Origin: Schmidtea polychroa
Lineage: Eukaryota
Length of the DNA stretch: 64,000 bases
Direction of reading: 5' to 3'
NCBI GenBank assembly: GCA_044892525.1
Contig: CM097885.1
Location: forward strand, 265,732,001 to 265,796,000
Shown: one piece after another, positions 14,847 through 50,835 of the stretch
Position numbering within the stretch: position 1 is the first letter of the stretch
Layout of the letters: the number at the start of each line of letters is the position of its first letter
Position numbers and translations under genes: made by a program
Notes under the pieces: generated by a model
Told to the model about the DNA's origin: nothing
Seen by the model: only the letters and a program-made list of their open reading frames with translations
Database searches by the model: none

Positions 14847-14870
14847 TTTTTATTATAATAGATTCATAAT

Positions 14871-16856: not shown

Positions 16857-16867
16857 ATTTTTAAAAA

Positions 16868-22800: not shown

Positions 22801-23121
22801 AACAATGACAAACGAACGTCTGTCTGGATTAGCATTAATTTCAATAGAACGCGAACTGGCTGAGAACGTTGACTTTGAATCGACTATAAATCGTTTGCTT
22901 CAATGAAATCACGCAGGAAGCAATTTAAATAATAAAAAAACTTGTATGTTTGTTACATCAATAAATTTACTAGAAAATATTTACTGAATATAATGCTTTT
23001 TAATAATATTAGTATTCACTCAATACTTACGAAAATAAGTAGTACCATCTTCATAATTTGTGGCGCCCCCTGAAAATTTTCCTCGCCCCCCCCCACGCAC
23101 CAAAATCTAAATCCGACACTG
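19872..23121 (+). mobile_element. hAT DNA transposon (ZMYM1-like transposase), 3250 bp
   Basis: TIRs CAGTAGCGGATTTAG / CAGTGTCGGATTTAG; 8-bp TSD GTTCTTTC (19864-19871, 23122-23129). Confidence 0.93.
20208..22906 (+). pseudogene. Disrupted hAT transposase
   Basis: Fragments with LIVDSTIDIS, YDGASVMSG, VHCCSHALNL, and the hATC tail LPVTSATAERSFSRLK; multiple stops. Confidence 0.9.
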
Positions 23122-23791: not shown

Positions 23792-23886
23792 CTACCGGGA
23801 GTAGTTCTACCATGGGAGCTCACCTGCCGGTAGGTTTCGACCTGTGTATACACTACCAACGTCTCACATCACCACGGGTATACATA
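23792..23886 (+). ncRNA. Conserved structured RNA motif, copy A
   Basis: Stem CTACCGG/CCGGTAG around GAGTAGT..GCTCACCTG; hairpin TGTGTATAC/GTATACATA with an ACTACCAA x G internal loop. Confidence 0.55.
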
Positions 23887-23985
23887 ATGGAGATGATTGC
23901 TAAATCGTGGAAATTACCCAAGCGAGTCTGTCTGAGCATGCGAATGATTTGTCTTTCTTTGTTTCTTCCTCTTGGGTAACCAACA

Positions 23986-24753
23986 CTATGCTATTAGATC
24001 TCCCAGTCACCTGACACCCAAGCGCTGCTTTATTAATTTCGTCTTTATTACTTAGTCTCGGCGAACTGATTGTTTGGGCTAGTTTCTTTGATACCCATTG
24101 ATCTCGTACTGGAGTTATCGACCTTTATCTTTTCTCGGCATTTGCGGCAAATACTTCAGATTTTCCGGTACTTTTAAAATTCAATTCAATTTTCATGAGT
24201 CTTTTCACAAGTTCATCGAAATTCGAAAAATCCACGTAGCATAGTGCTTTTTTATTTCAGGAAGGCTCCATTTATAAATTGATTTAGAAGCAGTTTTCTG
24301 ACTTGTTTTACCATCTCAACTTATTCAGGCTTTGCTTCGAAGGCTTTGCTAAAGTCGTTAAATAGTATGCGTATTCACTTACCGATTCATTTGGATTTTG
24401 CACTCTGGCATAAAACTTTTGTCGCATTATCCTTTGAATATCGCCTACCACCAATTTCATTGCCATAGCGTCTTTGAGTTTGGCCCAATCATTTCCAATT
24501 GTCTTTTTATCCACTTGCTGCCAAGCTTCTCTTTGGGCTCCTTTGAAATAGAATGGGAATCTTTGTACCATAATGGCTTGTGCCACCCATAGGCCGAAGC
24601 GTACATATAATAATTTCCCATGAAATCAGCAAACTCAACCGCGTCTCCTCCATACTGATTCACAGGTAATTTTTGATAACTGGCAAAGTCTATCATCTCG
24701 GCGTTCTCTCTGGCCATCTTTATTGTTCGATTTCTCAGATTATATTCACTCAC
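23986..24753 (-). pseudogene. gag: gypsy-like gag, 5' part (frameshifted ORFs 24457-24753 and 24308-24586)
   Basis: KLPVNQYGGD...YASAYGW...QRFPFYFKGA...QNPNESVSEYA; homologous to 29337-30376. Confidence 0.85.
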
Positions 24754-24886
24754 TGCTAAATAATAAAATTAATAATCAATAATTACTACCTCTTTCAATT
24801 TTCCCGATTTCTGATTATTTTCAAATTTTATTAATTTAGTTTTCTTAACCTCTTTTTACTATTCAATATTTACCCACCAACGTTTG

Positions 24887-24904
24887 ATCACATCGGGTTC
24901 ACCA
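24887..24904 (-). promoter_or_regulatory. Primer-binding site, tRNA-Trp type
   Basis: TGGTGAACCCGATGTGAT versus the canonical Trp PBS TGGTGACCCCGACGTGAT (16/18), next to an LTR end ...CCCAACA. Confidence 0.85.
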
Positions 24905-24969
24905 AAAATATATGTTGGGTTTTATGATATTAAAAATCAACCGTTGGTTACTCTGACTCAACGTGTTCC

Positions 24970-26327
24970 AAAAATTAATAAACACAACTTCCAACGTATA
25001 TTTGTTTTTTAGAATTTCTTAAACCTTTAGATGAACACCTCAACCAGTTCGGGAAAAAACCTCCGTCCTTGCTTTTCCTGCGCGGATAAAAATGCCGATA
25101 TCGCACAGCTACACTTATACATCGGGGAGTTAAAGAAGAGAATTGACCTTTATGAAGGAACGTGGTTCTCCCCACCACAAATGAAGGAGGAGAAGAGCAA
25201 AATTCTACGTTAGGAGCACTGCCGTGACAGTCTCCTGGAAGAAAGCAGGTGCCAGAGGCTAACCATAAAAGCCCAATCAGAGGCACTGCACAAAGTGTAT
25301 TCTGAATCAGAAATAGCGAAGCGAGTTCGTGAATATCCAATGCAAGATGGGACTAACGTGTTCCCAGGACACCACCAGTAAGCTGAAACATCATCAACAA
25401 CTAGCTGTAAGGGGCATGGCCTACAATTGACGCCAATTCCCGCCCCAGTTCTTTCTGGTTATCGGTCTATGACCGGCGGTCCATCGGACCCTATCTTGGC
25501 CCCACTCCTCGTGCCTCACCTCACTCAACCTCCAGTAAAAGCCACATTGCCACATCGAAAGCGTAAACGGCTGACGCGCTCTGAGAAAAATCAGAAGCGT
25601 AGAAACGCAATGGCCGCCCTTGAAGCATCCTTGTCAGTGGCACAATCCAAAATTAATGAAATAACCTCCACGCATTCAATTACCGCCAAGGAGATCTTCA
25701 AAATAATTCCGGCAGAGGGGATTAAATATGAGGCCGATCAGTACTTACCTGTCGACATCGACGAGATGCTTGCCGAAGGAGAAGCATTCTCGTAATAAAC
25801 TTTCCCATCGGTCCCGATCATCCTACCTTATGCATGGACTCGAAGAATTTGACATTTATCTTGTGCATGTTCTTAAATGTTTTATCATTATCCAAATAAT
25901 ATGGACTGTCTTGTTATGTTTATCTTAAATACAACTGTTTGATTTCTTTGACTGCGTTAGTAGTATATCTGATTGGCTGTGGTTGATTGGAATGGAAAAG
26001 TGATCCTGAAGGTATAGTACGAGCTTGAATGTCGTCCCTTTGGACCAGGGTCGGACTGAATTATGCGTGTAAAATGGGTAAGACCTTCTAAGGCACCATG
26101 GAACCCGAACCGAGAAAGGGTTAGAAGTAGTCCTAAGGCAGGGGCTCACCTGCTAATTTTTTCCAACCCGTGTGAGCAGCACCAACGTGGAACGTCACCA
26201 CGGGCTCATACGTGGGAATATGCTAATGATCATTTGGTGTATGTGAGGGAATAGTCTGAGCAGAACCATGATACTTGAGATGTATGATAATCATGTATGT
26301 ATATTTTCTTTCCCACATACGCCAACA
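24970..26327 (+). mobile_element. 3' part of multi-kb LTR (copy B)
   Basis: CFSCA ORF homolog and structured motif (26119-26211); ends CCAACA at 26327. Confidence 0.75.
26119..26211 (+). ncRNA. Conserved structured RNA motif, copy B
   Basis: GGTTAG/CTAATT stem; GTGTGAGC/GCTCATAC; AGCACCAA x G loop; CGTGG/CCACG. Confidence 0.6.
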
Positions 26328-26397
26328 TTTATATAAATATTTCTTCCATTTTTATTGATTTATTTTTTAATTTAATTGTAAAATAGTCATTGGCGAC

Positions 26398-27630
26398 ATG
26401 GATAAAAATAAAAAAATAAAACTTTCTGGTTATGAATTTATGAAAAAAAGAGAGGAAAAAGAAAAGAGACACGAAAAAGATAAAGATAGTCTCCTAAAGT
26501 TTTTATTCAATCCCACTGCCTCTATAAGGAATGATATGGACTTACAACCCTCAACTTCAAATAGCTCTGCAATTAAAGTTGCAGTTAGTAATGCAGTTCA
26601 GATAACTCGTCAAGAAAATTGTGTAATTGAGGAAACTTATCTGGATTTGGATCAGGACTATGACAGAAATAGATTTCATGATTTAGTAATCACTGACCCT
26701 GGTACATGGCCTATAATGAAAGATGAACTCCGGCAGATGATTATTAAAACGAATATAGGACATATTGAAAATAATACTTTCCCAGCTGACAAAGACAACA
26801 GAAAATTCACGACATTTCATTATCAACGAAAATTATGTAATGGTGAAAGTATGACAAGAAAATTGTTGCAATAATCGTTAGATAAAGATCGTGTTTTTTG
26901 TATTTGCTGTAAACTTTTCTCCTCAACTGCATCAAATTCATCATTAAATGACAGTGGAAGCTATGATTGGAAGAATCTGGCAGCACAGCTTTCAATGCAT
27001 GTAAAGAACGCTAAACAAGTCGAATGTTTCCAACTATGGTGAGAATTGTAGATGCGTCTTATAACAGAACGTACAATTGATCAATCCCAATTAGCCATAA
27101 TTAAAGAAAAAGAAAATTATTGGCAAAACATCTTGGAAAGATTGATTGATTTAGTACGGGTTCTTGGGTAACAGAATTTGCATTTTCGTGGGAGTGGAGT
27201 AGAACAATTAAATTGCCCCCGAAATGGAAATTTTTTGAAATTAATTCAATATTTTGGACGGTACGACCCTATTATGAAGGAACATTTAAGAAAAATTACA
27301 AGTAATGAAGTACATGTTCATTATTTATGGAAGAATATTCAAAATGAATTGATGCACGTACTTTTTGAAGCAATAATTAACAAAACAATTGAACATGTCC
27401 GTCAGGCAAAATATTATGCAATAATCCTCGACTGTACACCGGATGCAAGTCATGTTGAACAGATGACCATGTTAGTACGTTTTGTGGACATGGATAAACT
27501 GCAGCATTCGGAAGTCTTCATTAGGGAACATTATTTAGGTTTCATTCCTATTAAATCTTCTAGCAGAAACTTTAATAAAACAATTGAAACATTTGTCATT
27601 GGATGTTCAAATGCAATGGACGTAATATGA
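26398..27630 (+). pseudogene. Truncated hAT (ZMYM1-like) transposase relic
   Basis: DPGTW, RNGNFLKLI, YYAIILDCTPDASHVEQMT; broken by stops and 3'-truncated; no TIR seen. Confidence 0.8.
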
Positions 27631-30600
27631 AGTAATATTTCTCAGTTTACTTTGAGTCTTTCTGTTTTTTCTCCTCTTGAAATTTCTGTATTATTTTACA
27701 TCTTATTTCATACAAATTTCTGCATTATTTTTCTTTAATGTTATTATCACTCGTCATCTTGGTCATATATGCCTCATTTTTAACTTCAATTTTTATCTCA
27801 TTTTCAACAATAATCTGCTCCGCTTCATTTTCTATTTCATCTTTTTCAGTCTTCATCTCATTTTTAACAATAATCTCTCCAGTTTCATTTAATATTTCAT
27901 ATCTTCTCATTTCTTGTTCATCGTGCGTCTCATCATCATTACTCATTATCTCATTTTTCCAGTTTGGTAATTCCATTTTAAAGCTTTCTTCTACTTCCTT
28001 TAATTCCCATTGTTTCGCCGCAACTAATTCAGTAATAAACTTTCCTGATTCGTCAAAGATTCATTTTCATCAAATTTTCGTGGTACGCAGCCACAATCAA
28101 ATAAATACTTATCATCATCTAACTCAAAACCTTTATATGTCAATACAATTATTCCATCATTGCCCATAATTTCTGCTGCTCTTCGTCGTATTTTACTCAC
28201 TTTCGTACAACAATGCTCGTTGGTACATTCCATTTCTTGATCGTTTACTTTTAACATTATTACGAATGGCTCAACATAAACTACTTTTCTCTAAATTCCT
28301 GCCCAATTTTTTGAATAAGCGTTTTTATTATTTCACTATATTCATTATCATAATTTACATAATTTACTGATCCAATCTAAAATTTTTAATTTATCTTCCA
28401 CCTCATATTCTAAATTCAAAATATCATTTTATTTATTAATAATATCACCTGTATCTCCCTTGATCAATGCTTCATTTAATTCAAATTTAATTTTATCGAC
28501 ATCATATTTGACTGGTTTTTCATTGGTAATCATGCTCATTATTTGTATCTCATTTTCAACACCGGGGATCAATCCACAATCTATCAAAAGTTCGTCGTCT
28601 TCCAACACCCGATTCATAAATCTAAGTTCTACTGCCCAAACTTCACATTTGTGCATTATTTCTCTTTTTAACTCGTGCACCTTTTCATATGCTTCAATTT
28701 GATACTCGAATTTGGTGCCACCTGATGCATTTGTTTTAATAAATATCGGGTCTAACCATTTCAATTTTCGTAGAGTTTGGCCAAATTCTTTCATATACTT
28801 TTCAAATACATCTCGCTTTTCCACACTTGCTGCATAACATTTCGTACAAAGTTTAATAACAGTTTTAATTTTTGTTAAACTCAACGGTTTTTCCTTTAGC
28901 TTCATTAACACTTCTATCAATTTCTGAAAGTTTGCGTTAGGTTCTGTTACTAATTTTCTGGCCTTAGCAATAAGTATTGTACTCTTTTCACTTTGCATAT
29001 CCGTTTTAACTCTGTTTCTTTTAACATCATCAAGTTTTGATTCATCTGTCTTCACCTCTCGTCTTGTCATCATATGAGAATCTGTTTCTTCATCTGATTC
29101 AAATTTTGCTATCAATTTATTCAATTTTTGATTTAACTGTTTAACATCGTTCTCGATTTTTTCTCTAAATTTATCTTTCTGAACATAAGCAACGTTATTC
29201 TTTGATTGGTTTTCATCTTGAAATCTAATTGTTCGTTTCAAAATCGGTCATTGAAATTTATCGGAATTCCTGGGACAAGATCTTGCAATATGCCCGTAAT
29301 TTCTGCATAAATGACATTGAATTTGTCCATTTAAATTCATATTATCTCTTTGTGGTGATGGTGATCTATCACACATCCTTTTCTATCAGAGCGATAACAT
29401 TTTACCTCATTAAAATTTGACTTTACATTAGGAATTGCTCTTCGAAAATTCGTTCCTCTATCATCTCTACGCCAATCGGGACCCGATCTCCTGGGTACTC
29501 TTTCAGAATTATTTTTAAACCAACACTGATTTGTATAATGGCCAATTTTCTTACAAATATCACACTGAATAACTTTAGCTCTCTCAGTGCCTGGTGAATT
29601 TTGGCTTGCTCTGTTCATATTATTATCGTTTCTCCATTTGGGTGATGGGCTCTTTGATCGTCGAAATCTATTTCCTGATTCCCAATTACCTTGAGTTGGG
29701 GTTATTGATCTCTCTCTTTGTACTGGAATTATTGCAAATACCTCAGATTTATTTTTAGAGCGCTTTAGATTCAATTCGATTTTTATAGCCTTTTTAACTA
29801 GTTCATCAAAATTGTCATAATCTACAAAACATAATGCCGTTTTTATCTCTTTATTTACTCCGGACGAAAATTGATCTTGAATCAGTTCCTGGATCTGTTG
29901 GATTAATCTTGGTTGTTTCGAATCTTCTTCAAAGGATTTACTGGCAAAGGTGGATAAATTATATGCAAATTCGCTCACTGTTTCATTTGGATTCTGAACT
30001 CTATTATAAAATTTCTGACGCATTAATCTCTTTATATCTCCTCCAATAAGTTTAGCAGCCAAGGCATCTTTTAATTTAGCCCAATCATTGCCGATTGTTT
30101 TCCTGTCGATTTTTGCCAAACCTCTTTAGCTGCTCCTTTAAGATATAAGGGTAATCTTTGAATCATGATTGCTTGAGACCATCCATAAGCCGTTGCATAC
30201 ATATAGTGATCACTCATGAAATCAACAAAAGTAATTGGATCTCCTCCATATTGCTCTACTGGCAATTTTTGACAACTGGCAAAATCATTATTTTCTTTAA
30301 CAACTGAAACTGGTAAATCTTCACTGCTCATTATCTTTTCCTTTTTACTCTGGCTCCGAAAATAATATGGGTTCACTTTAATAAATTATTTCGTTTTCAA
30401 ATTGCACAAAATCTAAATCTCAAATTATTATTATAATAAATAATTTACCCTTTTCAAAAATTCTTTTATAATTTCAATTTACCACAGTTTATTTTCACAA
30501 TTTTCTTTTTCAACAATCTCTTCACCAACTTTTGATCACGTTGGGCTCACCAAAATATGTTGGGTTATTGAGTTGGGGATAGAATTAGAACTCTTACTCT

Positions 30601-31032
30601 GACTCCAAGCGTGTCTTTGACTGCCACACAAATAACAATTAACACTGGAAACTTTATTGAATATCACAAATATTTTCACAATGATATAATTGACTCAACA
30701 AGCTAACTATTATAATGTGCTTATTACAACACAATAGTGAGAAATAGCACACTCGTATAACTTTGATTTGTCAAACCTCTCACAACTGAGGAGTGTAATA
30801 ATTGGTAATTTTAACAGGTTTTTTCTCTGATTTTGACTTGGCTTTACTCTTCTAACTTTACTCTATTATCAACTGAATTAACTCTATCTTTTCTTCTCCT
30901 GCTTATGCTGTGCCACCTCCTTTTATACCTTGTAAATTTATGGCAAGTGTTTTCCCATTTTCTTTCTCCTGATTTCCCCGACTGTCCCATTTTTATCTCT
31001 GACAGCTGTCAAGTTCTTTTCCCTTTTTAACA
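27630..31032 (-). mobile_element. gypsy-like LTR element copy 2: 5' LTR (30558-31032), Trp PBS (30535-30552), broken gag-coiled coil-UBL-UBL ORF, no pol visible
   Basis: LTR termini TGTT/AACA; PBS TGGTGAGCCCAACGTGAT; ORFs 30071-30376, 29337-30119 (CDICKKIGHYTNQC), 28429-29241, 28024-28257, 27725-27976. Confidence 0.8.
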
Positions 31033-31107
31033 TCACTTAAAAAATGTCTTCAACCACACTCTCAGTATATTTCTTGGTAATCTGTTTAAAGTCAATGAAA
31101 GTCTTTT

Positions 31108-32037
31108 TTAACTACATACTCGTAGACAGATGATAACTGAGCACGATATTGATGGGCATTCTCTTCTGTTGTGTCCAATATCTTTACACGCAAAACATCT
31201 CATCTCTGCATTCTGTGCTCTCTGATTGCACTCTCTGGATTGGTGCCCTTCTTTTCCAGATTGGGAGCATTTCTGAACCCTTGGTTTCCGACATTCTTGA
31301 CTCATATGACCCGCCTCCTGACAATTCCAACATATAATAACTGATCTATTTCTAACCGGCATTTCTCTTTTTTGGAATCTGTTCTGGAAATTATCGGCTT
31401 TCATCCTAGGTGTTAAATCATATCTGTCTTCTATTCGTTGTGAACTTGTAAAAGTTCTGCTTTGGTTCTGTCTATCGGCTAATCCTTGTCTTATCTTGAC
31501 AATACTCGCAAACGCTTCCTTCCTTCTATTCAAAATTGAAATTCCATATACTTCAATGTTTATATCATCGACCTTCTTTATCACTCCTTTTATTTCGTCG
31601 ACGCTCATCGCATCTCTCATCATTATTTCTTTCTGTGTATCCTTGCCTTTGATATAATGGACCAAAAAATATGACATTAATTCTTTCTTGTCCCATTTGT
31701 GCTTCAGAACCATCTTTTCTATTTTTTCGAAATATACTCGGGGTGTATCCTCGTTTTTTTCATAATTGCAGAGGGTTAGAAAATCCCCTATCAACGTCGA
31801 TGGTTTCTTGAAAGCCTTTTTCAATCTGTCTACAAAACAAATTTCATTTTCTTCTATTGCTTCATAAATTGGCAACAACTCTCTTGCGATCAAACATTTG
31901 ATCATCATACTTTGGCTGGATTGTTCTAGTCCACATACTTGGAAATACCTCTTGCATTCTCCAATAAAAACGTCTACATCGACGCTGCCATCGTAAATAT
32001 CCGGGATCATTTTATTGATCATTGCCAGGGTCGCCAT
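31108..32037 (-). pseudogene. gag: gag of a different LTR retrotransposon (three CCHC-type knuckles), 3'-truncated
   Basis: CWNCQEAGHMSQEC, CSQSGKEGHQSREC (degenerate), CFACKDIGHNRREC. Preceded by a PBS-like TGGCGACCCTGGCA (32023-32036). Confidence 0.85.
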
Positions 32038-32256
32038 GTTAATATTAACCAGTTAGTAATTTACAAATATTTATTTTTAATACAAATACAAATTATTGCC
32101 TAACTCTGGTATTATTAAAACACCCGATTTATATGGCGAATTAATTAATTAATTAATAATGCTAATTATGCGTACCAGCATTTATACTTATTATACTTTT
32201 ACTTATAATACAATATATATTTTATTTATAAATTAATTATTTAAATATCCCTAACA
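32037..32256 (-). repeat. Candidate short LTR (~220 bp)
   Basis: TGTTA...TAACA termini directly abutting the PBS-like sequence. Confidence 0.55.
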
Positions 32257-33601
32257 CACCATATAACAATTTGGCATCTTGAGTCTTCGAAGCTTTGTTC
32301 CTCGTGCGTTCATCTCATGAGCTTCTCAATTATTTAATGAGCCGTATTCATGTGGTTCGGTCGGAATTATAAACATTTCATCTTAGGGAGTCATTCTTTG
32401 AATTTGTCGTAACCTCCGGGTTTTTGCACAGACAAAATAACAAGATGACTTTTCATTGTGTCGATTCTAATCTGAAAACTGTGGTACCGTCCAAAGTATG
32501 GGTAACCTCCCAAAAAATCTTTAAACATTTATATATACAGGCGTGAATTCAAAGTTTTTTCTTTTTATTTTTATCAATTTGGCATCAGTGATCATATTAA
32601 TTTGGGATCATATAAATTTGTTTTCAGCAATTTACAAATGAAGAAAAGTATATTTGATTTAGAATGAAATCATTAATTTAATCCTATTTACTTCTAGTGA
32701 TAAATGGAAAGGAATTTAATTGCAACAAGTAGTTCATTTTTCGTCGCCCATAAAAATATGATATCCATCATTTTGCCTCTAAATGATTTTCGTGAATTTT
32801 TTATTTTCATGGCGGCATCTGGCTGAGATTGTTCGTTTGGATGTCATGTCCCTTTATTTATGGATCAAAATTATAACCATAATGATAGTATTAATCGTAC
32901 TAATAATTCAATGTCTTTTTCAACATTTAGGACAAACTATGAGAAATCAGGGCTGTCTTGCGAGAATCAGCAAGTATGACAACTTAAAATTACTATTGTT
33001 ATTAAATTTGTCCAAATAATGGGATTTGCAGTTAAGTCTACGGATCCGACCTTAATGTGTATGGTTCTTTGTTCAACATAAAGAAAATATTATTTTATTT
33101 TAAAATTATTTTTTTTGTTATGGATAAACATTATTAAGATTGTTAATCATATAATATCAATGTAATTTTAAAATTAGAACTAATTAAAAAATTTTTTTTT
33201 GTGATTAAATAATTGTTTAAATAATCATAAAAATAATTTAACACCACCATTTTGAAACGTGACGTCTTCGATCGAATTTCTGATTTACAAAGTAAATTAT
33301 TGCTTTATATTATAAGTTTATATATATATTTAAAGGTAAAAGGCTGTAAGTGTATTACAAAGATGATTATGAACCATTGAAATGCATTTCACCATTCGAT
33401 TGGCATCTTGTATATTTCCATGTTAGTTTTTGATATTTCTGACAAATTGAAATTTTAATAATTTATGACAAAACGCAAAACCGAGCTTTATATTTACTCA
33501 ATTACAAATTATTTGTTATCAATTCTAAGTTATTTATTATTTAGTCTCATAATTCTAGCATAAATTCAGTTCGGTACCAGTCTGTTTTTAAATGAACAAA
33601 T

Positions 33602-34525
33602 GGGTAAAGTGGAATATACGCTCCCACTGATTTACAAAATATACATTACTAGATAAATAGAATGCTGGTTTAACTCATACTAAACTGATAAGATACACTA
33701 AATTCATAAAAATATACTTTTATCAAGATGGCGTGTTAATTTCGTTCCCTTTTTCTTTAAAAATAATTATAATGAATTCCAAGTTGATTCCATCTTTTGA
33801 GTGTTAATTTTTGGATTATCAGGATTGAAAAAATTATAACGGTGGGTTACGAAAAAATTGGTAATTCCAGACTAATTTTAATTAATTCTCCAAGCACAAT
33901 TACACTTCGATTCTCAACTATTTCCATAAACGCTTCAAACATATCCCCTCTTGCTATTCACTCAACCATCCAAACAGTACTTACAATTTTCCCAACATTG
34001 TACTTTCTTTTTGTTACGACACTTTCATCGATTTACACTATTTTTCCTGGTTTCCATATTTTTGTCTTTGGGACAAAGCGGATAAAATATTCAAATCCAA
34101 TATCTCGCATGAACATATACCAGTCAATTACAGAATTTTTATAGACATTCAAAACACATCTTGAATGCTTGTTTTGCGAGACCATTCATACTTAATAACA
34201 ACCAATATTTTTAGTGGGAGTTTAGATTTTTCAAAAATTGTACTCTTGTTACACTATCAGTCACTGCATTTCCAACGACAGGCATCTGAACTGGTTTATT
34301 ACAAGTTGCAAGGTAACGGGTTGAAGCAATCAAATTGTTGGTTTGTAACAATGTTATCAAATTTTCTTGTGTTCTGCAAATATCAAACAGATTATAGCGT
34401 TTAAAGAAAGGTCTAATCACTACTAGAATTAAATTTCTGCAAATAGATTATAATTACAAAATAATCAAATATAAAATTGATTTTTAATTAATATATAAAT
34501 GGGGGGCGTATATTCCACTTTACCC
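33602..34525 (-). mobile_element. Merlin (IS1016/ISXO2-like) DNA transposon, degenerate and internally deleted
   Basis: ~24-bp TIRs GGGTAAAGTGGAATATACGC(T/C)CCC; 8-bp TSD GAACAAAT; remnants IDESVVTKRKYNVG and NTQKMESTW. Confidence 0.9.
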
Positions 34526-35207
34526 GAACAAATTTATCAATTTAAATTATTTCAGTTGAAATATAATATATTTTTGAGATTTTTCAAACCAAGGAGTCTC
34601 TAAAAACAAGAGACATGTAATACAGGACTTTTTTATTCTTAAACTAATATATAAATTTTTTATTTTATCTACAAAACCATTTACAAACATTCATATATTT
34701 CAATGCGCAATTGATAACGGTGGAAACCTTTTTAATTATTCCATTTTCAATTTTGCAACAAATGCTTAATATTTGGTTTTCTTGATTCCTTTAATATTCT
34801 TTTTCCCGGTTCTCATAACGCTTTGCCACACACCACTTTGTAATAGCACAGGCAATTCAACTCCATCTTCTAACAACTTCTGACAGACTTTTGATACCTT
34901 ATGAGACGATAATGATAACCTTGTCTCAAGATTACATGCAGAAGAAGTGCTGTATTTCTTTTTTGGAATTGGCGATGAAGACTGATTTATGCTGTTGTCT
35001 TATTACAATTGGTATTTTTTGTAATATTTTTATCTTCACTATTTGTATCAACCAAAGAATCTTGCAGTGGCTCACATTCAATATTAGATGTAGATCTTTT
35101 CAAGTAATGTCTTTTTGAAGATAAACCTAGTGCGGGTTTCACAATTGTATAACCGATTTTTCCATCAGATTTATGCTGCTTTTGATACAACTCTTTATCC
35201 TCTATAC

Positions 35208-37420: not shown

Positions 37421-37485
37421 GTTTAGGGTGATGGTTAAATTGTTTTACATATTATTGTCAAAAAAAGTCTAAAACTCCGGTTGAA

Positions 37486-37686
37486 TTGTGTTCCGATCTC
37501 GTTTATCAGTTTACATATAATAGGTGTAATGCCACATACATTGGAGATACTTCCCGTCATCTCTGCATTCAAGCTCGAGAACATTATAAACCAAAGGCTT
37601 TGACCAATATTAGTGACCACAATAAGGGCTGTAAGATTAAAATAGGTATGTCTGATTTGAAAGTTTTATATTTTGTAATCAGATAA
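37486..37686 (+). pseudogene. GIY-YIG endonuclease remnant of a Penelope-like retroelement
   Basis: LVYQF...CNATYIGDTSRHL...AREH. Confidence 0.75.
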
Positions 37687-39210: not shown

Positions 39211-39564
39211 GGATAAATCTTCTACAAAAAATAACATACGCATAAAATTCAAAACCGGATCAAATGACGGTATGCTAATATTGCTAAAAAAGATTTATAG
39301 CATTAAAAAGTCATTTTTGGTTATTGCGATTCGAAATGGAGTTATAGAAGTAGCAATAAATTTAGGAGGGAAAAATGGAATTTTAAGAATAACTGGCGAC
39401 AAGAATATTTCAGATAACAAATGGCATACAGTGCAGGTCATTAGGTAAATATTTCAGAAATAACAGGAACGTTGTACTTCTAATAGATGATCGAATGTTT
39501 CGTGCGCAAATGCTGGACAACGATAATTATAATACTCTTACAACTGATGGATGGATGTGGCTTG
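39211..39564 (+). CDS. Laminin-G domain exons of a host extracellular-matrix gene (agrin/perlecan/EYS-like); possibly a pseudogenised fragment
   Basis: Exon 39211-39444: IRIKFKTGSNDGMLIL...IAIRNG...NLGG...ISDNKWHTVQVIR. Exon 39458-39564: NNRNVVLLIDD...TLTTDGWMWLG, ending at a GTAAGT donor. Confidence 0.8.
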
Positions 39565-40096
39565 GTAAGTTTCATTTTCTTTTTGTCACAAAATTTATAA
39601 AATATTTTATAAAAATCTTACAATTTTATCATATATTATCAGATAATGAAAACAATGAAATAAATGTTCTTACTATTTCAACTTTTGACATCCTTAACTC
39701 GTGCTTTGTGAGCCATGTGCGGTTCAACTAGAAATTTAAACGCGTCAGTGACTTTCTCAATTTCGCCAATTATATTATAAGAAACATACAAAAGTTTAGA
39801 AAAAATTAATGAAACATACAAACACGGCGACACAATTTCTTTAATAAAATACAAATGCTAACAAGCGATAAAATGAACTTGAAAACTATTTTCAAGACTC
39901 GAAGTATAGTTTCATTTTAGAAAAACGAAGAAATTTTAAAATTTTAATTTGTTTATTATTAATAATTGTCGAATTATTGCAAAGTTTTTATTCTTTCCTT
40001 GTATTTATGTGTTTTTGTATTGGTTTTATTATTATTATTAATCCAAAAATTTACAATCTTTAACTCTGTCTTGGAAAGTGTCCCGTATTAGACATG

Positions 40097-40265
40097 TAAA
40101 TGGCTTAAATCGAAATTTTTTAAAATTAACTCTTATTATTAAAAAATCAAAATAACAATATTTAAGAAAATAATAAGCGTTCTAAATATTAATTTATATA
40201 AATAAATTTAAAAGGCTTAAACTTCCAAAATTTATATGGTTTGACCCATAGTTTGAGAAACACTG
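40097..40265. repeat. Second, internally deleted copy of the Charlie element end
   Basis: Matches 37191-37332 plus the terminal TIR; followed by GTCTATAC (7/8 to the left flank CTCTATAC at 35200-35207). Confidence 0.9.
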
Positions 40266-40383
40266 GTCTATACAAAGCCAGATGCCATTAACCTTCGTAC
40301 GCACTACATAACATAAAAGAGATTTACATTTATCGAGTAGCCATCTAAAAGTTAATTAAAAGTTAGAATTTGATTGAATCTAA

Positions 40384-42485
40384 TGTTGGGCTGAGTCGGG
40401 AAATCAATTTGGGAAACTAAGAAAGTAAAATAAGCAAGAGATTAAAAGAAAACAAAATAAAATAAACAAATTTAGGAATACCATAAAATAAGATATAAAA
40501 ACAATAATTAGAAAATAAGAATTAAAACAAAAAATATAAAACTAAGAAAAATTAAAATAAGACAATAGAATGACGAAAAATAACGTAAAATGTAGCAAAT
40601 AATAAGGAAATCAAAGAAATTAAATAAAAACATAATAAAAATAAAGAAAATAGGAAGAAATAACTCAAAAACAAGGAAAATAAATTAAAATAATAAAATT
40701 AAGCGGTACTCAATTCTGATTGGTCCGCGTAAATAGAAAATTAATATATAAGCAGACATTAAAATCATAATAATTACCTTTAATCCAACAATTGCAATAG
40801 GTAAAACAACAACTCACAGCTAACAGCCACCGACTTACAGTAGCTTGCAAGGACTAATTCAGAAAATCAAGAAACTTCAACTAAATCTATATTCTACTCA
40901 AGCATCAACCGATTCGACCCAGTGTTTCCGACTCAGCCTATATTGAATACTTGGTAAGGAGTTTTTCGTTTTATATTTGGGTTTATTAAGTAATGATTAT
41001 GTATACATGCATTAATTATAATTTTTATCTTTAAAATTTTGTTCTCTTTTCGTTTGATCTAAATGCGTTGCGTAATTGAATGATTTAGTGATTTAACAAT
41101 AAATGGTTTATTATGCATCAGTAATCTTATTATTTGTAATTTTATGCTATTCAAATTTTTCGAGAAACGTGGCATTGAGATACTCCATGTCATGGTGTGA
41201 GGTGCCTTCGGGAGCTCAGCCGGTGGACATGGAGTTTTCAATCACGCAGCTGATTCGGGCCGTAATGTGGGGGCTTCCTCACGGGTCCGTCGCTGAAGGT
41301 GCGACTAAATTCGATAGAAAATTATGCGAGAAGAGTAAGGTGGAAGAATGAGAACATGAATTGGAAAAAATCTTTTGTATATTTGCGTAGTGATTGAGGG
41401 TGTCGCACTATCGTCTCATAACATCGTTTTATTCCGTTCAACTTTCCTCTATCGCCAAGAGATTCAAGTCCTTCGTCAAAAACTGTTCAAACGTTAGCAA
41501 TGATATGTATGACCCATTATCGGGGTCCCGGATTTTTCTCAAAGTTTAGTCTGACTGTTTCCAGCCAACGAACCTTCGCGATTACTCGTTTCACCATCCA
41601 TGAGTTTATCTTAAAGCTGTAGTTATATTGAATTACGAAAATAAATAGTCTCAAACAATCGTCTGATTAAAAGCACAATAACTCTAATCAGGAAAAATGT
41701 AATTTTTAGAACACAATTTATCGTGATAATGCTTACAGATTAAATATGAACTCTCGGCCTACCGTTGAATTGCAATCCGGAGTTGAAGCAAGCAATTAAT
41801 TTTCAAATCGATAGGAATAGATAGCATATGTGGATAACGACCGAGGGCCATGAGTTGAATGGAGAAATAGTAGTTGAGTCCCCAAAGTAGGGAAATTTCC
41901 ATAACGGTGATGCATAGAATTCTAGTTCCAAAATTTCCCTGAGAATTCGCATGTCAATAGTGTGAGAAGAAGGGTGTGGGGTGTGTTCACAGCCGATCTA
42001 TCAGCATTACACGCTACGGAGAAACTACATCTGCATGCATACTCAAACACAAAATATCGCATGAGAATAGTAGTCAGTGATCGTGATTGTTAATAAGTAG
42101 GTGAGAGCGAATACGAGGTAGGTGAATAGCATTGAGAGTCTCAAGAAACGAGGAGCATTAGTCAGTTAGAAACTCTAGTTAGGGGCATCGCGATGGGCGA
42201 CAGAGTGAGAAGACGTAAGTCCTTCTATCGGCAGTCGGGGTTAGGAAGTCGAGACCTCAGTAAGGAGTAGTCCGAAGGAGCTGGCTCACCTGCTTACTGG
42301 CGTCTCGCCGGCATAGCGCAGTTCCAACGTGACGCAACTCACGGGTGCTATGCTGGAGGGTAGGTTATGTACGGGTCCTGCTCAGCGATGACAAAAATAA
42401 AGACGAGCGAAATTGATGTGGGCATTTCATCCTCTAGATTAAACGCGGAACAAAGGGGGGTCATCTGAGTAGCTACCCGCCAACA
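40384..42485 (+). mobile_element. Solo LTR copy C (2.1 kb)
   Basis: TGTTGG...CCAACA with 4-bp TSD CTAA; ATTGG at 40719, GTAAGG donor at 40954, structured motif at 42258-42353. Confidence 0.85.
42258..42353 (+). ncRNA. Conserved structured RNA motif, copy C
   Basis: CAGTAAG/CTTACTG; GCATAGCGC/GTGCTATGC; AGTTCCAA x G; CGTGA/TCACG. Confidence 0.6.
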
Positions 42486-43711
42486 CTAATAATAATATTT
42501 TTTGGTAAATTTTATTTTAATAAAATTTTGAAACAGATGTCTTTGTTTTCAATCATATAAGTGCACGTTGATTTTTCGATTATATTCATTTGAGATCTCA
42601 ACCGACTGAACAAATTTTTAATTTAGTTTGAATACCAGTAATTTGTGACCACATCATCCGATTTGATGGAACAATTCAACATAGGAGATTTAATGCAACG
42701 ATTCGACATCAAGAAAGAATGGCCCAGTAAAATCAAAGAAAACCCAATCAATCCTATCTTACGACAAATAGACATCGATCAAATTAATACACTAACATAC
42801 ACAATCAATTTGAGTCACAAACACAGCAAACACACATTGGAAACTTTTTCCAATTTTACATAAATGGGGCAATAGTTGAAATCCCTGAGGGCTACAAATT
42901 CCAAAAATCAATAAAATATTGGAAAAACCCAAATAGAATAACCCCACAAAAAACACAATAGAACATATCCACAATGAGGGTATAATAGGAATAGTCATTG
43001 ACGATGTTCACTCACGGAAAACGAAACAAATAGGAGCACTATTACAGAAGAAATCCAAATGGACAATAATAATAATAATAATAATTATAATAATAATAAT
43101 AATAATAATAATATTTAACATATTCTGAAATTACTATAATATTCTTGAATTACTGTTCTTAATAATATAAATATATATAGAAATCAATGAAACAATAAGT
43201 CAGACACAAAGATGGTATGTAAGACAGACTGAGAGGAAACTAGTAAAAACTTAGCTGAAACCAACACTGGCTAGTGGTTACAGTAATATATAAGGTCTAT
43301 AATAATTATTATTGTCACCAAAAATAATTATATTTTATACTATATCAATTTGTGCACTTGCTTTTGATTTATTTTGGATGAATCATTGGTGGATAAAACG
43401 TCCTAGAATATGATGATGATATGAATTCATTATCTATTTAAAAACTAAAAAATATTTTCATATTATTTAGAAACAAAAAATAAAATAAATTTGTTTTAAA
43501 TATTTGGCAATATAAAAATATTTACATATTAAATTTTCTTCCCTATAGTTCCAACTCTTCAACCTTGTTTTTAAAGACTGTGTGTTTCTTTGGGTATCTT
43601 TCCGCCTGGCTTGATCTCTAGAGACCTTCTTTTTTGGAGAAAGGTACCCGCATATAATGCAGAATATGTGAGAGACAGAATATATGCGGGACAGTCGCGG
43701 TCCATCTAGCG

Positions 43712-46156
43712 CAGGGGTCTCAAACTCAAACTGGCCTGCGGGCCGCATTAGACTAGTATCATGAGCAGGCGGGCCGCAACATAAATAATTGTTTTCCAGA
43801 ACATGTGAAGTCTGAAACACCGACGTTAATATTTATTTAATTAAAAACTCAACAAAACTAAAAAACATTTTATTTTAATATTTTAGCATTCATTATACTG
43901 CTTTCTTACATTAAAATACTAAAATTAATGTTACTGTGAAATCAATCCATGTTTTGCCCACTTACCTGGCATCGTTTAGCATCAACCAAGGCATCAATGT
44001 TAGGTTTAATGTCCTGTGATGAAACCAGTCTTAGAGATGCTTGCAGATGTTCATCAGTAAGCCTAGATCTTAATGGCGATTTGATAATTTTCATGGAAGA
44101 GAAAAATTGTTCGCAAACATACGTACTTCCAAACATTGCTATCATCCTTGCAGCAGCAGAAAGTAACATAGGAAACCTTTCTTTTGAAACAAACTGATAA
44201 AATTCTAGAATTCCAACATCTGAATACTTTTGCTTCAATATGGAATCACACTGAAGATCTACTAATTCCATCTGCAGTTCCTCTGCTATATTTTCAATCT
44301 CAACGGCGAATGGTGTTGCAAAAAGCTGAAAATGTGGTTCAAGTGCCTTAAAATCGTTAAAACGTAAAACAAATTGTTGATGCAAATCTGAAATTATATC
44401 TGCATATTCTTTCAGGGATTGGTTTTCGACTTTTCCTAAGGAATTCAAAGTTGAGAAATGGGCTAAGTTGCCTACAATAAGCTGTCTTTGAAATAAAGAC
44501 AATTTGACTTTGAATGATTTAACACTGTCATACATCTGTGTAATGACTTGTCTTTTGCCCTGAAGTTTTAAATTTAATGCATTCAAATGACCAGTTAAAT
44601 CTGTCAGAAAGGCAAGGTCGCAAATAAACTTGGCATCAGTAAGCTGTGGAACCTCATTCTTTTTGAGTTTCATGAAAGAATAAATCTCTTCTCTAAGTGC
44701 AAAAAAACGATTCAGCACATTTCCTCGACTCAGCCATCTAACTTCGGTCTAATAAAGAATTTCCCGATATTCGCTTTCTATACTTGCTAGGAAAGAAGTG
44801 AACTGTCGGTGATTTAAGCCTCGTGAACGTATAAAATTGACCGTTTTCACAACCACATCCATGACACCCATCATTTTAATACTTTTGCTACAAAGAGCTT
44901 CTTGGTGCACAATGCAATGTAAGCTAGTGAAATTATTATTTGGTATATTGAGGCTTTGTAGTTTGGTCTTCACCAATCCAACAACACCGATTGTTTGTGA
45001 ACACATAGCTGGCGCTCCATCCGTGACCATTGATACAAGTTTGTTCCATGGTAATCCAGCTTTTTCAAGACAATCTTCCAATCCTTTAAATAAATCACGT
45101 CCCGTTGTGGTATTCTTCAATGGTACCAAGTCTAGAAATTCTTCCGTTACATTAAATTTACTGTCCACTCCTCTTATAAAAATTGCGTACTGTGAAGTAT
45201 CTACCAAATCAGTACTCTCATCAAGAGCGATCGAAAATGCTTCAAAATCTCCAGCCTTTTCAATAAATTGTTTTTTCACATTATCTGCTAAATCGGTTAT
45301 TCTGCTTGCAACTGTATTAGCAGACAGACTTATGCTTTCGAATAGTTTCTTTTTATCAGGAATTAAAATTTCGCTGGCCTTCAAAAAACATTCTTTTATG
45401 AATGGACCTTCTGTGAAAGGTCGCGATGATTCAGCTATCATCAGGCTTAGCTCAAAACTTGTTTTTACTGAATTTTCTGCAAATTGGCTTAAATTCGAAA
45501 AAAAGTTTCGTTGCTTATCAAATCCTATTTTAAGCTGGTTAACTTTTTCATCTCGAATTTTTCCAGTATATTTATCATATTTTTCACGATGCATAGTGTC
45601 GTAGTGCCGGCGAAGGTTGAACTCCTTTGGTACTGCGATAGTCTGCTGGCATATAAGGCACTGAATTTTATCTCTCGCCTCTGTGAAAAAATATAAATTC
45701 TCCCACTTCTCTTGGAAAACCCTTCTTTCATCAACGAGTTTTCTTTTTCTAGATAACGAAGTCATTTTGTGATGGGTATAAAAAATTTTAAATATGCCAA
45801 TTATTTGTTGATTGAAATAACATTAAATTAAAATAAATAAAAATTTAAATTATGTAAAATATATGTATTTTTAATATAACTTATATTTTTTTAATTTTTT
45901 TAATTTAAATAATAAAATCAATAATTTTTAAAATAAATAAACTGTTTTCGATAAGATTCATAAGGAAGATGTAATAAAGCCATTATTAAATTGTACTAGA
46001 CGTCATATGTATAAATAAAAATAATTAAAAAGAGTAGTTTTAATTTATACAGCCAATTATGATTTTAATTGTTAAATAAGTTTGGTTAAATTACAAATCT
46101 ATGTTTGTTCGTTGCGGGCCGTATGCGGCCCGCGGGCCGCGTGTTTGAGACCCCTG
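43712..46156 (-). mobile_element. hAT transposon (GTF2IRD2/SPIN-like), nearly intact
   Basis: Perfect 14-bp TIR CAGGGGTCTCAAAC and perfect TSD ATCTAGCG. A ~607-codon transposase (45765-43942) is broken only by one in-frame TAG at 44749-44751 (ILY*TEVRWLSRG). Confidence 0.96.
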
Positions 46157-48339
46157 ATCTAGCGTTTATCGATCGAATTGATAAACAAACTGAACCTACT
46201 ACGTGTAACCAACAATGACTTAATTATTGGTTTATCTTAAATTTTTATTTCTATTTCTATTTCATCCACACTGGCAATGAATGATAGAATAAGTTCTCCA
46301 AGTCATCCATAATCAGAAATAGTTTAGTAATAAAATTAAATTGATTTATGGAGACAATTTGGCCTTAATATACACGTTAAGTTTTTTTGTGGTTGCATAG
46401 AAAATACACTAGTACTTAATTAACTCAAAATTGTGTGTTCTTTTTTCACCATGATGTTTGTGTACAGAACCAGACGATTTTCGCACTGTCCCTGGGATTT
46501 TGAATGCATTCATCGAATAAAGTACTTGTTATTTTGCTTATAGCAAACTGAATTTGGAAATGGTGTATTAAAAAATGTAAGAATAAAATTAGAAATATTA
46601 CATCTTGATAATTTATTTGGTGATTCATAGAATCATAAGAAGTTTACTGAACTAATTTATGTTTAAATGATTCTGTGAGATTAGATATTTACACATTATG
46701 TTCATAAAATATAAATTAGAATAAATTTCTATTCCTTGGGCCATGTGGGATGAACAATTGTTTATTTTTCAATAATGTAAATGACCTTTAGTGCATAACA
46801 ACTACCAAAACTATAGATCTCGTTTCTCAAACATCTAGTGGACTGAAAGAAACGAGCATTTAATCATTATCGATTGAAACTCATCACAAAATACAACGAA
46901 TATTTGAGTTGACTCATTATTAATGAATAAAGATGAATTGGGCAGATCATCGAGTCCTCAAGGGAGTGAAATCAACACTCAAAAACTAAAAGTTTAAGAG
47001 AAATTAAAAGGGTCAAAAATCTAAGTAGCCTTTTACCAAAAAAAAGTTGAACCAGGAGCGTAAACAAATGTACACCTTGATGAAGGCCCATAGCAGCACT
47101 TTTTCACGCTCGATAGGGAAGGGAGGATAGTTGATTTTACATATTCAAATATAAATATAAATGCAATGCAAATAAAAGAATTAAATGTAAAGAAAATGTT
47201 TAAGTCACCATTGATCAGCCAGGGCTGTCTCCACTGCAACATTGGTGCGTAGCCCCCTGAAGGGAACCACGCTCTGCTACCATGTTTAACACTTCAACTG
47301 ACTGTCTTTCGTCTAGCATCAGAAAATGGATGCCTATTTAGAAATTACTGCATTATTAGATAAATTTGTGAGACTTATTTTTGTGCTGTCTCTAGTTTTA
47401 ATTATTCTTCAGGATTATCCTTTAGAATTGCTAGACACTAATTTTTGGCGATTTTACTAAATTTTGTTGGGTATTTGTAGCACTCCAAATATTAATAAAA
47501 TAAAATATTTTAATTTCCGGCTTATACGCACGGAATAATATATTCTTTTTTTATCTTTTTTATTATATCATGCTATTATAGCAGATGTTATTATTATATT
47601 ATATTTATTTTATGCTTTTTCTTATAGCAATAGTCTTTTATAATATCTTTATTTAAAATATATTAATTTCCGGCTTGTACGCACGGAATATATAATTTTT
47701 TTAAAAATATTAAATATATAATATTCATTGTACTTTAAATAATTAATATTTTATAATAATTTTATAATTAATATTTAATAATTTTATTTAAATGTTAAAA
47801 TTGTAATAATTTTTTAATAATACCACAAACCATATCTGTACATCAATAGATACACAATTAAATAGAAATATATACACAAACAATTAGCAAATAATCGTCA
47901 AGAATAATCAAAAGATAAATAAATGATTGTCATAAAAGATAGAGTAAAATGTAAAAATATATACAAACTATCACTGAATAAAAATTAATCAATACATAAA
48001 TAATCAATTGTCCGTAAAGATAAATAAATGATTGTTACAAGAGATAGTCACATAAGGGATGATTTTTTCTGGATGGACTATTTCTGGATAGCTTGTTTCT
48101 GACTTCGTGAATCTATCGTCTTTCTACTGCGCATACGTTAAATTTTAATTAAAATATCTTTTACAAAGAGAATTAGTGTAAGGTTAATATTCAAAATGAT
48201 AATAATAAAGTTCCTTCAGTATTTTCAAGTCTGCAAAATAGCAATTTTGAAAATTTCTCCCTAATAAACCAAGTATATTCAATTAAAAAGATTATTAAAG
48301 TTATAAATAAAAAAATACGATATTAGGAAAACTGTCTTA

Positions 48340-49145
48340 AATTCACAAACGATAATATTTTTAAATATTACATCGATACCAATACCCGACTTAGGGCGAA
48401 TCGAGTAATGCCTTGGATAAAAATTATTATAAGTTATTAAATAATAGTCTTTACGGCAAGACCGTAGAGAATCTGAAAAGTCTGAATTTGCGGCTTTGTA
48501 ATTCGGCTTCTAAGCTAATTACATATACATCTAAACCAACGTTTAAAAGGACTTATGAAATTGACAGTGACTCAGTATCAGTCTTGCTAAATAAGGAAGC
48601 TATTTGTTTAGATAGACCCAGCTACATTGGCCAAACTGTACTGGACTTATCGAAATTTAGAATGTATCAGTTGCAGTATGAAGAGTTACAAAAATATCGT
48701 AACGAATTCAACAGTAAAATTAATATCGTTGCAGGTGATACGGATTTTTTTTTCCTTGAAGTTATTCATTGTAAACTTGATGTTCTTTTACCAGCCATGA
48801 TCCGAGATAATTTACTAGACACATCTAATTACGAACCTAGTCATCCATTATATAGTAGGGATCTTGATTCTGTCATTGGAAAGTTCAAAGACAAGAATAA
48901 AGGTCTTGAATATAGGGAGTGGGTTTTCTTAGGTCAAAATGTTATAGTTTGAAGAACTAACATTGAAAGGTAGTACATCAGTCGTACCTGGAATGTTATA
49001 ACACTAATCACATTTTTTCTATACCCCAAACTAAAATAACTAGATAAAACCACCAGCTATTCACCATAAAAAATGAAAAAACTGCACTTACCAACGCAGA
49101 TGATAAAAGGGTTTGGGTGGGGAAAAATAAGTTATGCATATGGGA
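48340..49145 (+). pseudogene. polB: Decayed Polinton polB fragment (motif B to C-terminus)
   Basis: YKLLNNSLYGKTVENL, AGDTDFFF, LTNADDKR, closely paralleling the intact PolB; frameshifts and deletions. Confidence 0.92.
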
Positions 49146-49149
49146 ATTA

Positions 49150-49636
49150 TATGGGAGGTAACTCATTTGCTGTTCAATAATTCGATCCGGTCCAACATTC
49201 ACGAGGTAGGAATAACAAAGGATAACATCACTTTAAAAGAAGAATTCAACATCTTCAAAAAAACTTCTATCAGCACAAAAATTCTTGAATCGCTTTATAA
49301 GGTATTGAAAACGGCGAAGCCGACTTCAACAGATTCCGAGAGAACTTTTTCGGTTTCTGGAAACTTTTGCAACTAAGATCAGATCTCGTCTCTCTTGTGT
49401 ATCACTTAATTCATTGGTGTTTCTAAAATATTATTATTTAAATGAAAAAATGCAGTAAATATAATTTTAGTTATATATATACTTATATATATATATATTT
49501 ATAAGAAATAAAAGAAGATTTGGTGAAGTTCCATATTAAACAATATTTTTAAAAGGTTATCTGGTAATCGCCGGATAAATTCAAAATGTCCATTCGATAA
49601 CCGCGGTTTCCGGAAATCCGGATATTTGGAAATCCT
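49150..49636 (+). pseudogene. 3' relic of a hAT transposon (dimerisation domain)
   Basis: KPTSTDSERTFSVSG...RSRLS motif. Confidence 0.7.
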
Positions 49637-50753
49637 AGTTATAAAGTTAATCAGAAATCTAACATTGACCTTATTTTACTGCACACTAGACTAACTACAT
49701 CGTCTACTAAACGTTTTTTTGTTTGCGGCACACTAAGAAACGGCCTTTTGTTTTGCGACACACTAAATAAAATATATCGGAAAAATTTAATATAACTTAT
49801 GAATATAAGCAAAAATATACAAATTCTTTAGTGTATTAATAACAAAGATCCTTATTATTTTATTGAGATATAATGCACATATATAGAAACTAAAATCTCG
49901 CAAACGAGCAATAGTTGAACTATCATTTCAAAATTGCGATATTCATATTTTCATATATTTTCATATTCATATTTTGGTTTTAAATTTCTAAAATGTATGT
50001 TTAAAAAAACAAAATTAAAATAATTTACCATTTTCAAAAAAAAAATATTCATATTTTGGTTTTAAATTTCTAAAATGTATGTTTAAAAAAACAAAATTAA
50101 AATAATTTACCATTTTCAAAAATTCTGGAAATATCTATGAGATCTTCATTCTGCGTGATCTCGAACCAATCTCCAATTAAAAGACCTAAAATAATATTAA
50201 TAAAATTAATTGAAATAATAAAATTTATCATTGCCTTCATGTTCCATTGAATTTCCTCCTAAATTGGTAAGAATCAACTTGAGTAGTTTCTAACCATTTT
50301 AACGAAGAAGAATTTTCTTTGTGGGAAAACAAAAGTAAAAAATTACATTTGTGGTCATATTTGATATGATTAAAGTTTAAAATATTATAAANNNNNNNNN
50401 NNNNNNNNNNNNNNNNNNNNNNNNNNNNNNNNNNNNNNNNNNNNNNNNNNNNNNNNNNNNNNNNNNNNNNNNNNNNNNNNNNNNNNNNNNNNNNNNNNNN
50501 NNNNNNNNNNNNNNNNNNNNNNNNNNNNNNNNNNNNNTATAAAATAAAAATAAAAACACCAACATTTTTCTTTGACATCTTCGGCATTCATAATTATTCA
50601 ATCGGGGGCTTAATTTAATTTTTCATAATGCTGGGTCTTGTGTCGGGTCAGAAAAACATTTTTACATACTAGGGGTTGATTGTCCTAATTGGACATGCAG
50701 ATATTATCGTTCCACGGGACCCTTAACCAAAACACACACGATCATACTTCGAG

Positions 50754-50835
50754 CATGACACCCATGATTTGCATCATGTTGGTGCTGTGCCATGTCGGCG
50801 AGTTACGATGGAGCCTTAGGACTACTCCTTCATCG
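50754..50835 (-). ncRNA. Conserved structured RNA motif, copy D
   Basis: CGATG/CATCG around GAGTAGTCCTAAGGCTC; CATGGCAC/GTGTCATG; AGCACCAA x G; CATGA/TCATG. Confidence 0.6.

Follow-up and report, generated by a model that had tools for sequence, protein, structure and literature searches.

In a 64,000-nt stretch of the Schmidtea polychroa genome (GenBank assembly GCA_044892525.1, contig CM097885.1, positions 265,732,001 to 265,796,000 of the forward strand), hereafter referred to as the window, four long terminal repeats (LTRs) of Burro-like giant gypsy elements carry a conserved RNA motif. Genome-wide, about 3,000 terminal repeats of the giant element keep the same predicted fold ahead of the primer site. 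Comparison of the sequences supports the structure well, while its function is what we infer from them. The original prediction had placed the motif at 23792-23886, 26119-26211 and 42258-42353 on the plus strand and at 50754-50835 on the minus strand, which are referred to as copies A, B, C, and D. All four are present at these positions, and their outer stems, 8x1 internal loop and upper stems read as described. The reported structure is real, but the motif is larger and has three hairpin domains over ~160 nt. The first domain, P1, is a conserved 5' hairpin that had been overlooked 40-45 nt upstream of the reported start; it has a UUCUA loop and, on its 5' side, a splice-donor-like GUAAG. P2 is a long variable stem with a near-invariant core as its cap, and P3 is a hairpin with an 8x1 internal loop ending in CCAA.

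The evidence for the fold is comparative. We reduced 100 occurrences to 64 distinct sequences, set aside 12 that carry insertions or large deletions as well as copy D and a sequence without the anchor, and included copies B and C, which gave an alignment of 52 rows with a mean identity of 63% (minimum 45%). Pairing is retained in 94.7% of the 2,026 paired cells with 379 double changes; none of 500 shuffles reached as high, and slid registers gave 37-44%. As relatedness inflates such counts, 26 disjoint nearest pairs were also compared. They contain 43 compensatory double changes against a null mean of 3.6 (maximum 13 in 1,000), distributed as 19 in P2, 15 in lower P3, four in the core, three in upper P3, and two in P1. 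The covariation claimed from four copies hence holds in a larger alignment. Among non-Watson-Crick cells, G-U outnumbers A-C by 133 to 32, with two near-invariant U-G pairs left out. This excess fixes the sense strand, and the full elements have their tRNA-Pro primer site downstream on the same strand, in agreement with the LTR sense strand named originally. Over 160 nt, 21 unpaired and 33 paired columns are at least 90% conserved, an invariance partly built in by the search patterns; a new U-A swap in the core was seen in loci chosen by LTR end and primer site. Single-sequence folding gave z values of -0.7 to -2.5, which are not significant alone.

Several other pairings and readings were considered, and most were rejected. 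Another register of the core hairpin is disfavored by columns 67/78, which covary in the chosen register, and by a second U-A swap in new families. Pairing of the P1 loop with the 3' strand of the core fails on inspection in the gag-only family described below, and a possible pairing of the P1 loop with the core UAG is invariant. An antisense reading had been prompted by a minus-strand primer site near 24900, which belongs to another element. A short intron ending inside the motif was rejected on inspection, as no conserved AG follows CUCAC.

The four window copies differ in preservation. In copy A, P1 occupies 23748..23771 with the donor-like site changed at its first base, P2 occupies 23785..23838 with the near-invariant core at 23799-23826, and P3 occupies 23841..23888 with the internal loop at 23852-23859. 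In copy B, P1 (26075..26098) has its donor-like GUAAG at 26078, P2 with the core spans 26112..26164, and P3 spans 26167..26214 with the loop at 26178-26185. The corresponding elements of copy C are P1 at 42212..42236 with a donor-like GUAAGU at 42215, P2 with the core at 42251..42306, and P3 at 42309..42355 with the loop at 42320-42327. Copies A to C are on the plus strand, and copy D (50754..50882) is on the minus strand, with P1 at 50882-50858 and the P3 loop at 50786-50779. Copy D lacks 14 nt of the 3' strand of the core relative to its closest relatives. Its P2 stem pairs, as had been claimed for all four copies, but closes this damaged core, and it scores 60 bits with the covariance model versus 130-153 bits for copies A to C, which are included in the model. 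The GAGUAGUYC core does not hold for copy B, which starts with AAG. Similarly, the first A and the final CCAA of the proposed 8-nt loop consensus are kept (CCAA in 47 of 52 rows), whereas its second base is free. The covariance model gives no further match in the window below E 1.2. Self-BLAST of the window linked only copies C and D; short motifs, among them a CCUUCUA..GGCA block 40-45 nt upstream, are present once in each of the four copies and nowhere else in the window.

Each copy lies near the end of an LTR. The LTRs end at 23985, 26327, 42485, and 50629 for copies A to D, at 99, 116, 132, and 125 nt from the motif, respectively, close to the 100-130 nt reported before. LTR A (23120..23985, plus) is Burro-like and 5'-truncated, retaining an LTR-ORF (open reading frame) remnant, the motif and the LTR end. 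LTR B (25011..26327, plus) is likewise Burro-like and 5'-truncated, with a decayed LTR ORF at ~25031-25795, and is 80-84% identical to the LTRs of full elements. LTR C (40384..42485, plus) is a solo LTR with a 4-bp target-site duplication and an internal rearrangement. LTR D (50629..56986, minus) is a 3' LTR broken by other insertions, with the conserved end of the internal region before it.

We then inspected the distribution of the motif. In the 781-Mb genome, three sub-patterns have 984, 1,212, and 2,998 exact matches, the last being those of one 5' sub-motif, and reversed-pattern controls have none. When loci were chosen by the LTR end and Pro primer site alone, the full motif was found in 29 of 30 loci of a first set, about five of which are also in the model, and in 29 of 30 of a second set; the single misses are a deletion and a sequence that is not an LTR, respectively. 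In viral and metagenome collections, the core pattern occurs in two viral and 14 metagenome contigs, to which the model aligns only at positions 54-85 with at most 20.7 bits, and none has the whole motif. As far as searched, this predicted structured RNA family is confined to Burro-like LTRs. Neither the window (E<=1) nor 15 loci (E<=5) gave an Rfam 15 match over the motif. We found no earlier description of the fold in the literature searched, which did not include the primary Burro papers and Repbase, whose supplements may bear on LTR annotation. The family is apparently undescribed so far.

Motif pairs ~26 kb apart are the LTRs of ~30-kb elements. In one full element, the LTRs are 4,181 bp and 99.86% identical; in another, they are 99.6-99.8% identical with a ~550-bp deletion in the 5' copy. 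The Pfam domains of the full elements are Gag, zinc knuckles, fusion glycoprotein, protease, reverse transcriptase (RT), RNase H, integrase, ankyrin, MATH, and RING, and no BIR or BCL2 domain was found among the 10 frames scanned. Judged by this content, the host is a Burro-like giant gypsy element. Downstream of the motif in 5' LTRs, and on the strand that carries it, come the LTR end, 7 nt of spacer and then a stretch to which the genome's tRNA-Pro(TGG) is complementary. The two full elements have 96% identical RT and 85% identical Gag, but their LTRs share a single 38-nt blastn match, located inside the core, and identity between their LTR ORFs is 36%. Such LTRs, unalignable between elements with 96% identical RT, suggest LTR swapping between lineages. 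An abundant non-autonomous family of ~13.7 kb has short LTRs, a 7-9 kb non-coding leader and at most an encoded Gag, which is 35% identical to that of the full elements; RT, integrase, RING, and LTR-ORF had no match in the three copies examined. One gag-only copy with both LTRs, which are 99.3% identical, has the motif in each. Copies of this gag-only family differ in the first kilobase that follows the primer site, the usual place of retroviral packaging signals (psi).

Two further features of the host elements were observed. The LTR ORF is an orphan of ~250 amino acids with CxxC, a conserved N-terminal half and a basic Arg/Lys-rich stretch, and its remnants in the window are at 25031-25795, 23120-23320, and 19760-19876 on the plus strand and at 51314-51841 on the minus strand. 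No homologue of its protein was found in Pfam, in a protein collection (near lengths only) or in PDB, and matches in the Atlas are at chance level only. Before the 3' LTR, there is no polypurine tract; a conserved ~45-nt block with a hairpin and a C-run, common to four families, is at 56987-57030 (minus) in the window and at the same place in three full elements.

The place of the motif in the transcript was assessed by its distance from poly(A)-like signals, its pairing partners and its splice-site-like sequences. In 33 of 76 loci, AATAAA lies 160-210 nt upstream of the core, usually with U-rich sequence behind it, while other 50-nt bins have 0-8 loci. This clustering suggests that the motif is in U5. 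A fourth helix (P4) is predicted between a box after P3 and the LTR end plus spacer; in it, a spacer G is opposite C or U and a spacer A is opposite U. In copy B, this box is at 26228..26233 (plus), and its equivalents are at 23903 and 42363 (plus) and at 50743 (minus). In 23 of 26 leaders, no donor-like site before the first ORF is better than the GUAAG of P1. RING ORFs start 293-571 nt after the LTR end, and all 16 located starts have an AG two bases before the AUG, which is YAG in 15. The LTR ORF has a similar acceptor-like AG. Contigs from sequencing runs presumed to be of RNA, compared with two LTRs, contained no junction from the donor-like site and no transcript start or end; as contigs would not reveal these in any case, the result is neutral. 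Separately, the invariant 3' strand of the core (e.g. 42283-42292), when read on the opposite strand, matches a canonical splice donor, and in sense orientation we take it to resemble a branch point and the 5' end of U1.

The best explanation, to which we give about an even chance, is that the motif is a donor-plus-packaging/priming leader marking unspliced genomic RNA for Gag binding and reverse transcription. The AAUAAA ~200 nt upstream would be the poly(A) signal, and the motif, as U5, would be present only at the 5' end of genomic RNA. As the major splice donor, the P1 GUAAG would give rise to the RING and LTR-ORF messages, and splicing would remove P2, P3, and the primer site. The predicted P4 would bring the primer site beside the motif by joining the post-P3 box to the LTR end and the spacer, and the machinery common to autonomous and gag-only elements would read the motif as a cis signal. 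The motif is kept across unalignable LTRs with common RT and Gag and in gag-only elements, and so behaves as a cis signal for shared machinery. The packaging function suggested originally is therefore consistent with the position, gag-only retention and sharing of the motif. The accompanying suggestion of dimerization is not borne out, as no single loop has a 6-nt palindrome for kissing in more than 3 of 52 copies.

The lack of a conserved loop palindrome is also one of several points that weigh against the packaging/priming leader. The motif is located 5' of the primer site, whereas retroviral psi usually lies mostly 3' of it. In the window, AATAAA is in the peak bin for copy A only (23610..23615, plus, at -189 from the core), one of the four copies. 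P1 is the least independently supported helix, with its two compensatory changes facing two broken double and 12 broken single changes. P4 was predicted at p of at least 0.7 in 15 of 17 distinct natural 5' leaders by folding without a shuffled control, and a crude test of its base gave 7.1 bp versus 6.0 bp for shuffled sequences, which is weak. These 17 leaders, and the 26 counted for the donor, come from a few related families. Moreover, against 2,998 intact copies, the first G of the P1 donor-like site is altered in 186, the fifth G in 86 and a loop C in 82. Such an excess is unexpected for a strictly required donor. It fits a donor needed for expression but not for copying in trans, or a less constrained bulged G.

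The same donor-like site would also serve a main role in RNA processing without packaging, in which the fold governs U1 access to GUAAG, the spliced/unspliced ratio or silencing of poly(A) in the 5' LTR. In a variant, the invariant core CUCAC could pair with the donor and mask it. The site is ~140 nt downstream of the AATAAA peak, acceptor-like AGs precede the RING and LTR ORFs, and U1 in HIV-1 (the type 1 human immunodeficiency virus) and foamy viruses is a precedent in the accounts consulted (PMC3694450, PMC12789967). A donor, however, needs ~9 nt, far short of the columns that are highly conserved here even if part of these are fixed by the search patterns; its first G is the most often changed of the three positions counted, and elements without either spliced ORF still have an intact motif. 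We consider this explanation rather unlikely. A nuclear export element for unspliced RNA, either resembling a constitutive transport element or bound by the LTR-encoded basic protein in the manner of Rev/Rex/Rem, is quite unlikely. The motif would be in unspliced RNA only, the LTR ORF combines its Arg/Lys-rich stretch with an acceptor-like AG, ORF and motif move together in one LTR module, and export elements overlapping LTRs are described (PMC12789967, as far as consulted). No Rfam family matches, however, and the ORF is only 36% identical between families with nearly invariant cores and has no homologue backing a Rev-like identity; the predicted tie to the primer site is also unnecessary for export. 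The two remaining suggestions of the original prediction fare worse. A self-cleaving or branching ribozyme of a new class, for 3'-end formation or retrozyme-like circular intermediates, would agree with the many invariant unpaired bases and several possible tertiary pairings, and with the P1 loop, which presumably resembles HDV (hepatitis delta virus) P3/L3 in size. The original prediction had found no match to the hammerhead, twister or HDV consensus, and known ribozymes indeed do not match. Our own descriptor of the HDV-like nested double pseudoknot, with P2 and the J4/2 cytosine around a CC-loop-GG hairpin, fits one of 49 sequences, a loose pattern for the hammerhead CUGAnGA and GAAA core fits two of 49, and no Rfam family matches. 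Cleavage in the 5' U5 would sever the R region, on which strand transfer depends, and the poly(A)-like signal of the LTR is an ordinary one. A ribozyme is thus disfavored and appears highly improbable. An internal ribosome entry site (IRES) for the gag-pol or RING ORF, for which a multi-stem fold in the 5' leader would speak, is likewise disfavored and barely credible. The gag AUG is 3,113, 3,172, and 8,787 nt beyond the primer site, behind 48, 47, and 253 ATGs, respectively. The RING ORF begins shortly past the LTR end with an acceptor-like AG before it, and the gag-only elements that retain the motif lack this ORF.

The motif also has complementarity to tRNA-Pro, with the CCAA of the P3 loop facing the anticodon loop, an ACCCG box (25 of 52 rows) facing the T-arm, and other boxes facing the D-arm. 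Capture of tRNA-Pro and primer activation would have the CCA-A of the P3 loop contact the UGG anticodon and the ACCCG linker swap the start of the primer site for the T-arm, in the manner of a primer activation signal (PAS). The genome's tRNA-Pro(TGG) fits the primer site, pairing of the linker with the start of the primer site is predicted at p of at least 0.9 in four of the eight leaders having it, and HIV offers a precedent in the sources seen (PMC11251516, PMC1865047). In extra complementarity to U5, tRNA-Pro ranked first of 26 tRNAs and was equaled by one of 60 shuffles in a test run on 25 of the 49 sequences. The margin is small, however, at -18.5 versus -17.4 kcal/mol with -17.5 kcal/mol for an upstream control region, and 23 of the 25 control tRNAs are from phage T5 because RF00005 gave only Lys and Arg tRNAs in the genome. 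About half of the copies lack the linker box, and a 4-nt match is common by chance. Among 13 candidates for other primers, no family with another primer was found; 10 carry the motif, and the representatives inspected have damaged Pro sites or no primer site. This explanation is improbable, and the tRNA contacts remain a lead. By analogy with the T-box, whose specifier loop reads a tRNA anticodon, one may conceive of a tRNA-reading switch in which the P3 loop reads the tRNA-Pro anticodon, the linker flips to the T-arm, and capture is coupled to donor masking, committing the RNA to packaging; its chance is slim.

Beside these contacts, many families have an extra hairpin ~30 nt upstream of P1, whose stem varies while its UGGACCA loop, complementary to the D-arm of tRNA-Pro, is retained; in the window, it is at 23707-23729 and 26031-26056. 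The tRNA-Pro(TGG) genes form a tandem array of 475-bp units from 130.90 Mb, and a 3'-end pattern has 2,164 matches genome-wide. Lys and Arg tRNA genes are arrayed as well.

Other elements are also present in the window. A Polinton-like element at 3167-17796 has 1.2-kb terminal inverted repeats (99%) and integrase-chromodomain and A32-like ATPase frames, and its frame at 15574-16044 matches TATA-binding protein (Pfam E 2e-15). A different LTR element has left remnants at ~24090-24920 and 28429-30560 (minus), with gag fragments, a weak ubiquitin-like frame and a different primer site, which we take to be tRNA-Trp-like.

Cis-acting RNA structures are well mapped in a few retroviruses and Ty1, and hardly in gypsy-type elements. 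The present family, with ~3,000 copies and rich compensatory variation, lies in the LTR and precedes the primer site, opposite to the usual placement of psi. As the sole alignable part of LTRs using one Gag/RT machinery, it provides a handle on RNA selection and priming by a 30-kb env-bearing element. In the retroviral leader, a donor hairpin is followed by psi. Like psi, the motif is a structured element in the 5' leader, as judged from covariation and place, with its U5 assignment resting on the AATAAA clustering.

As described in PMC6431247, as far as seen, Burro/GYPSM1 of planarians are giant gypsy-like LTR retrotransposons whose features match those found here, namely ~30 kb, LTRs of 3.7-4.2 kb, Gag, fusion glycoprotein, protease, RT, RNase H, integrase, ankyrin, MATH/TRAF, and RING. 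The parts of that description consulted cover proteins and no LTR RNA structure, and our copies are assigned as Burro-like, not to named families. The biological context of Burro is treated in PMC8532177 and PMC13465017 (both partially consulted), the latter reporting, by citing another study, that a Burro element is active in planarian stem cells. Retrozymes (see PMC4918200) resemble the present system in having a conserved RNA structure in LTRs of gypsy-dependent non-autonomous elements, but the motif lacks the hammerhead core and is also found in autonomous elements. The Ty1 5' pseudoknot and the Ty3 bipartite primer site share a structured 5' region with Gag-binding and priming roles, according to the portions seen of PMC4974528 and PMC5371799, one of which, a review, describes Ty3 RNA structure as uncharacterized. 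The Ty1 elements as described there reach into gag and use tRNAi-Met, and no homology to the motif was found. The U5-leader or U5-inverted-repeat stems and PAS of HIV-1, Rous sarcoma virus and Tf1 (PMC1865047 and PMC11251516, in the parts consulted; Tf1 only through a title cited in PMC4974528) are paralleled by the helix predicted to close immediately 5' of the primer site and by the box complementary to the primer T-arm in about half of the copies. The domain here is much longer (~300 nt to the primer site) and has a 7-nt spacer after the LTR end, and its PAS-like role is putative. Finally, the 5' leaders of HIV-1 and murine leukemia virus have a donor-like hairpin followed by conserved hairpins that are lost on splicing (PMC12789967, as far as seen), as would be the case here. 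The donor-like site and hairpins of the motif are instead inside the LTR, upstream of the primer site, without sequence or Rfam match and without a conserved palindromic loop. By analogy, the likeness would be greatest to a retroviral donor-plus-psi leader joined to a U5-leader stem.

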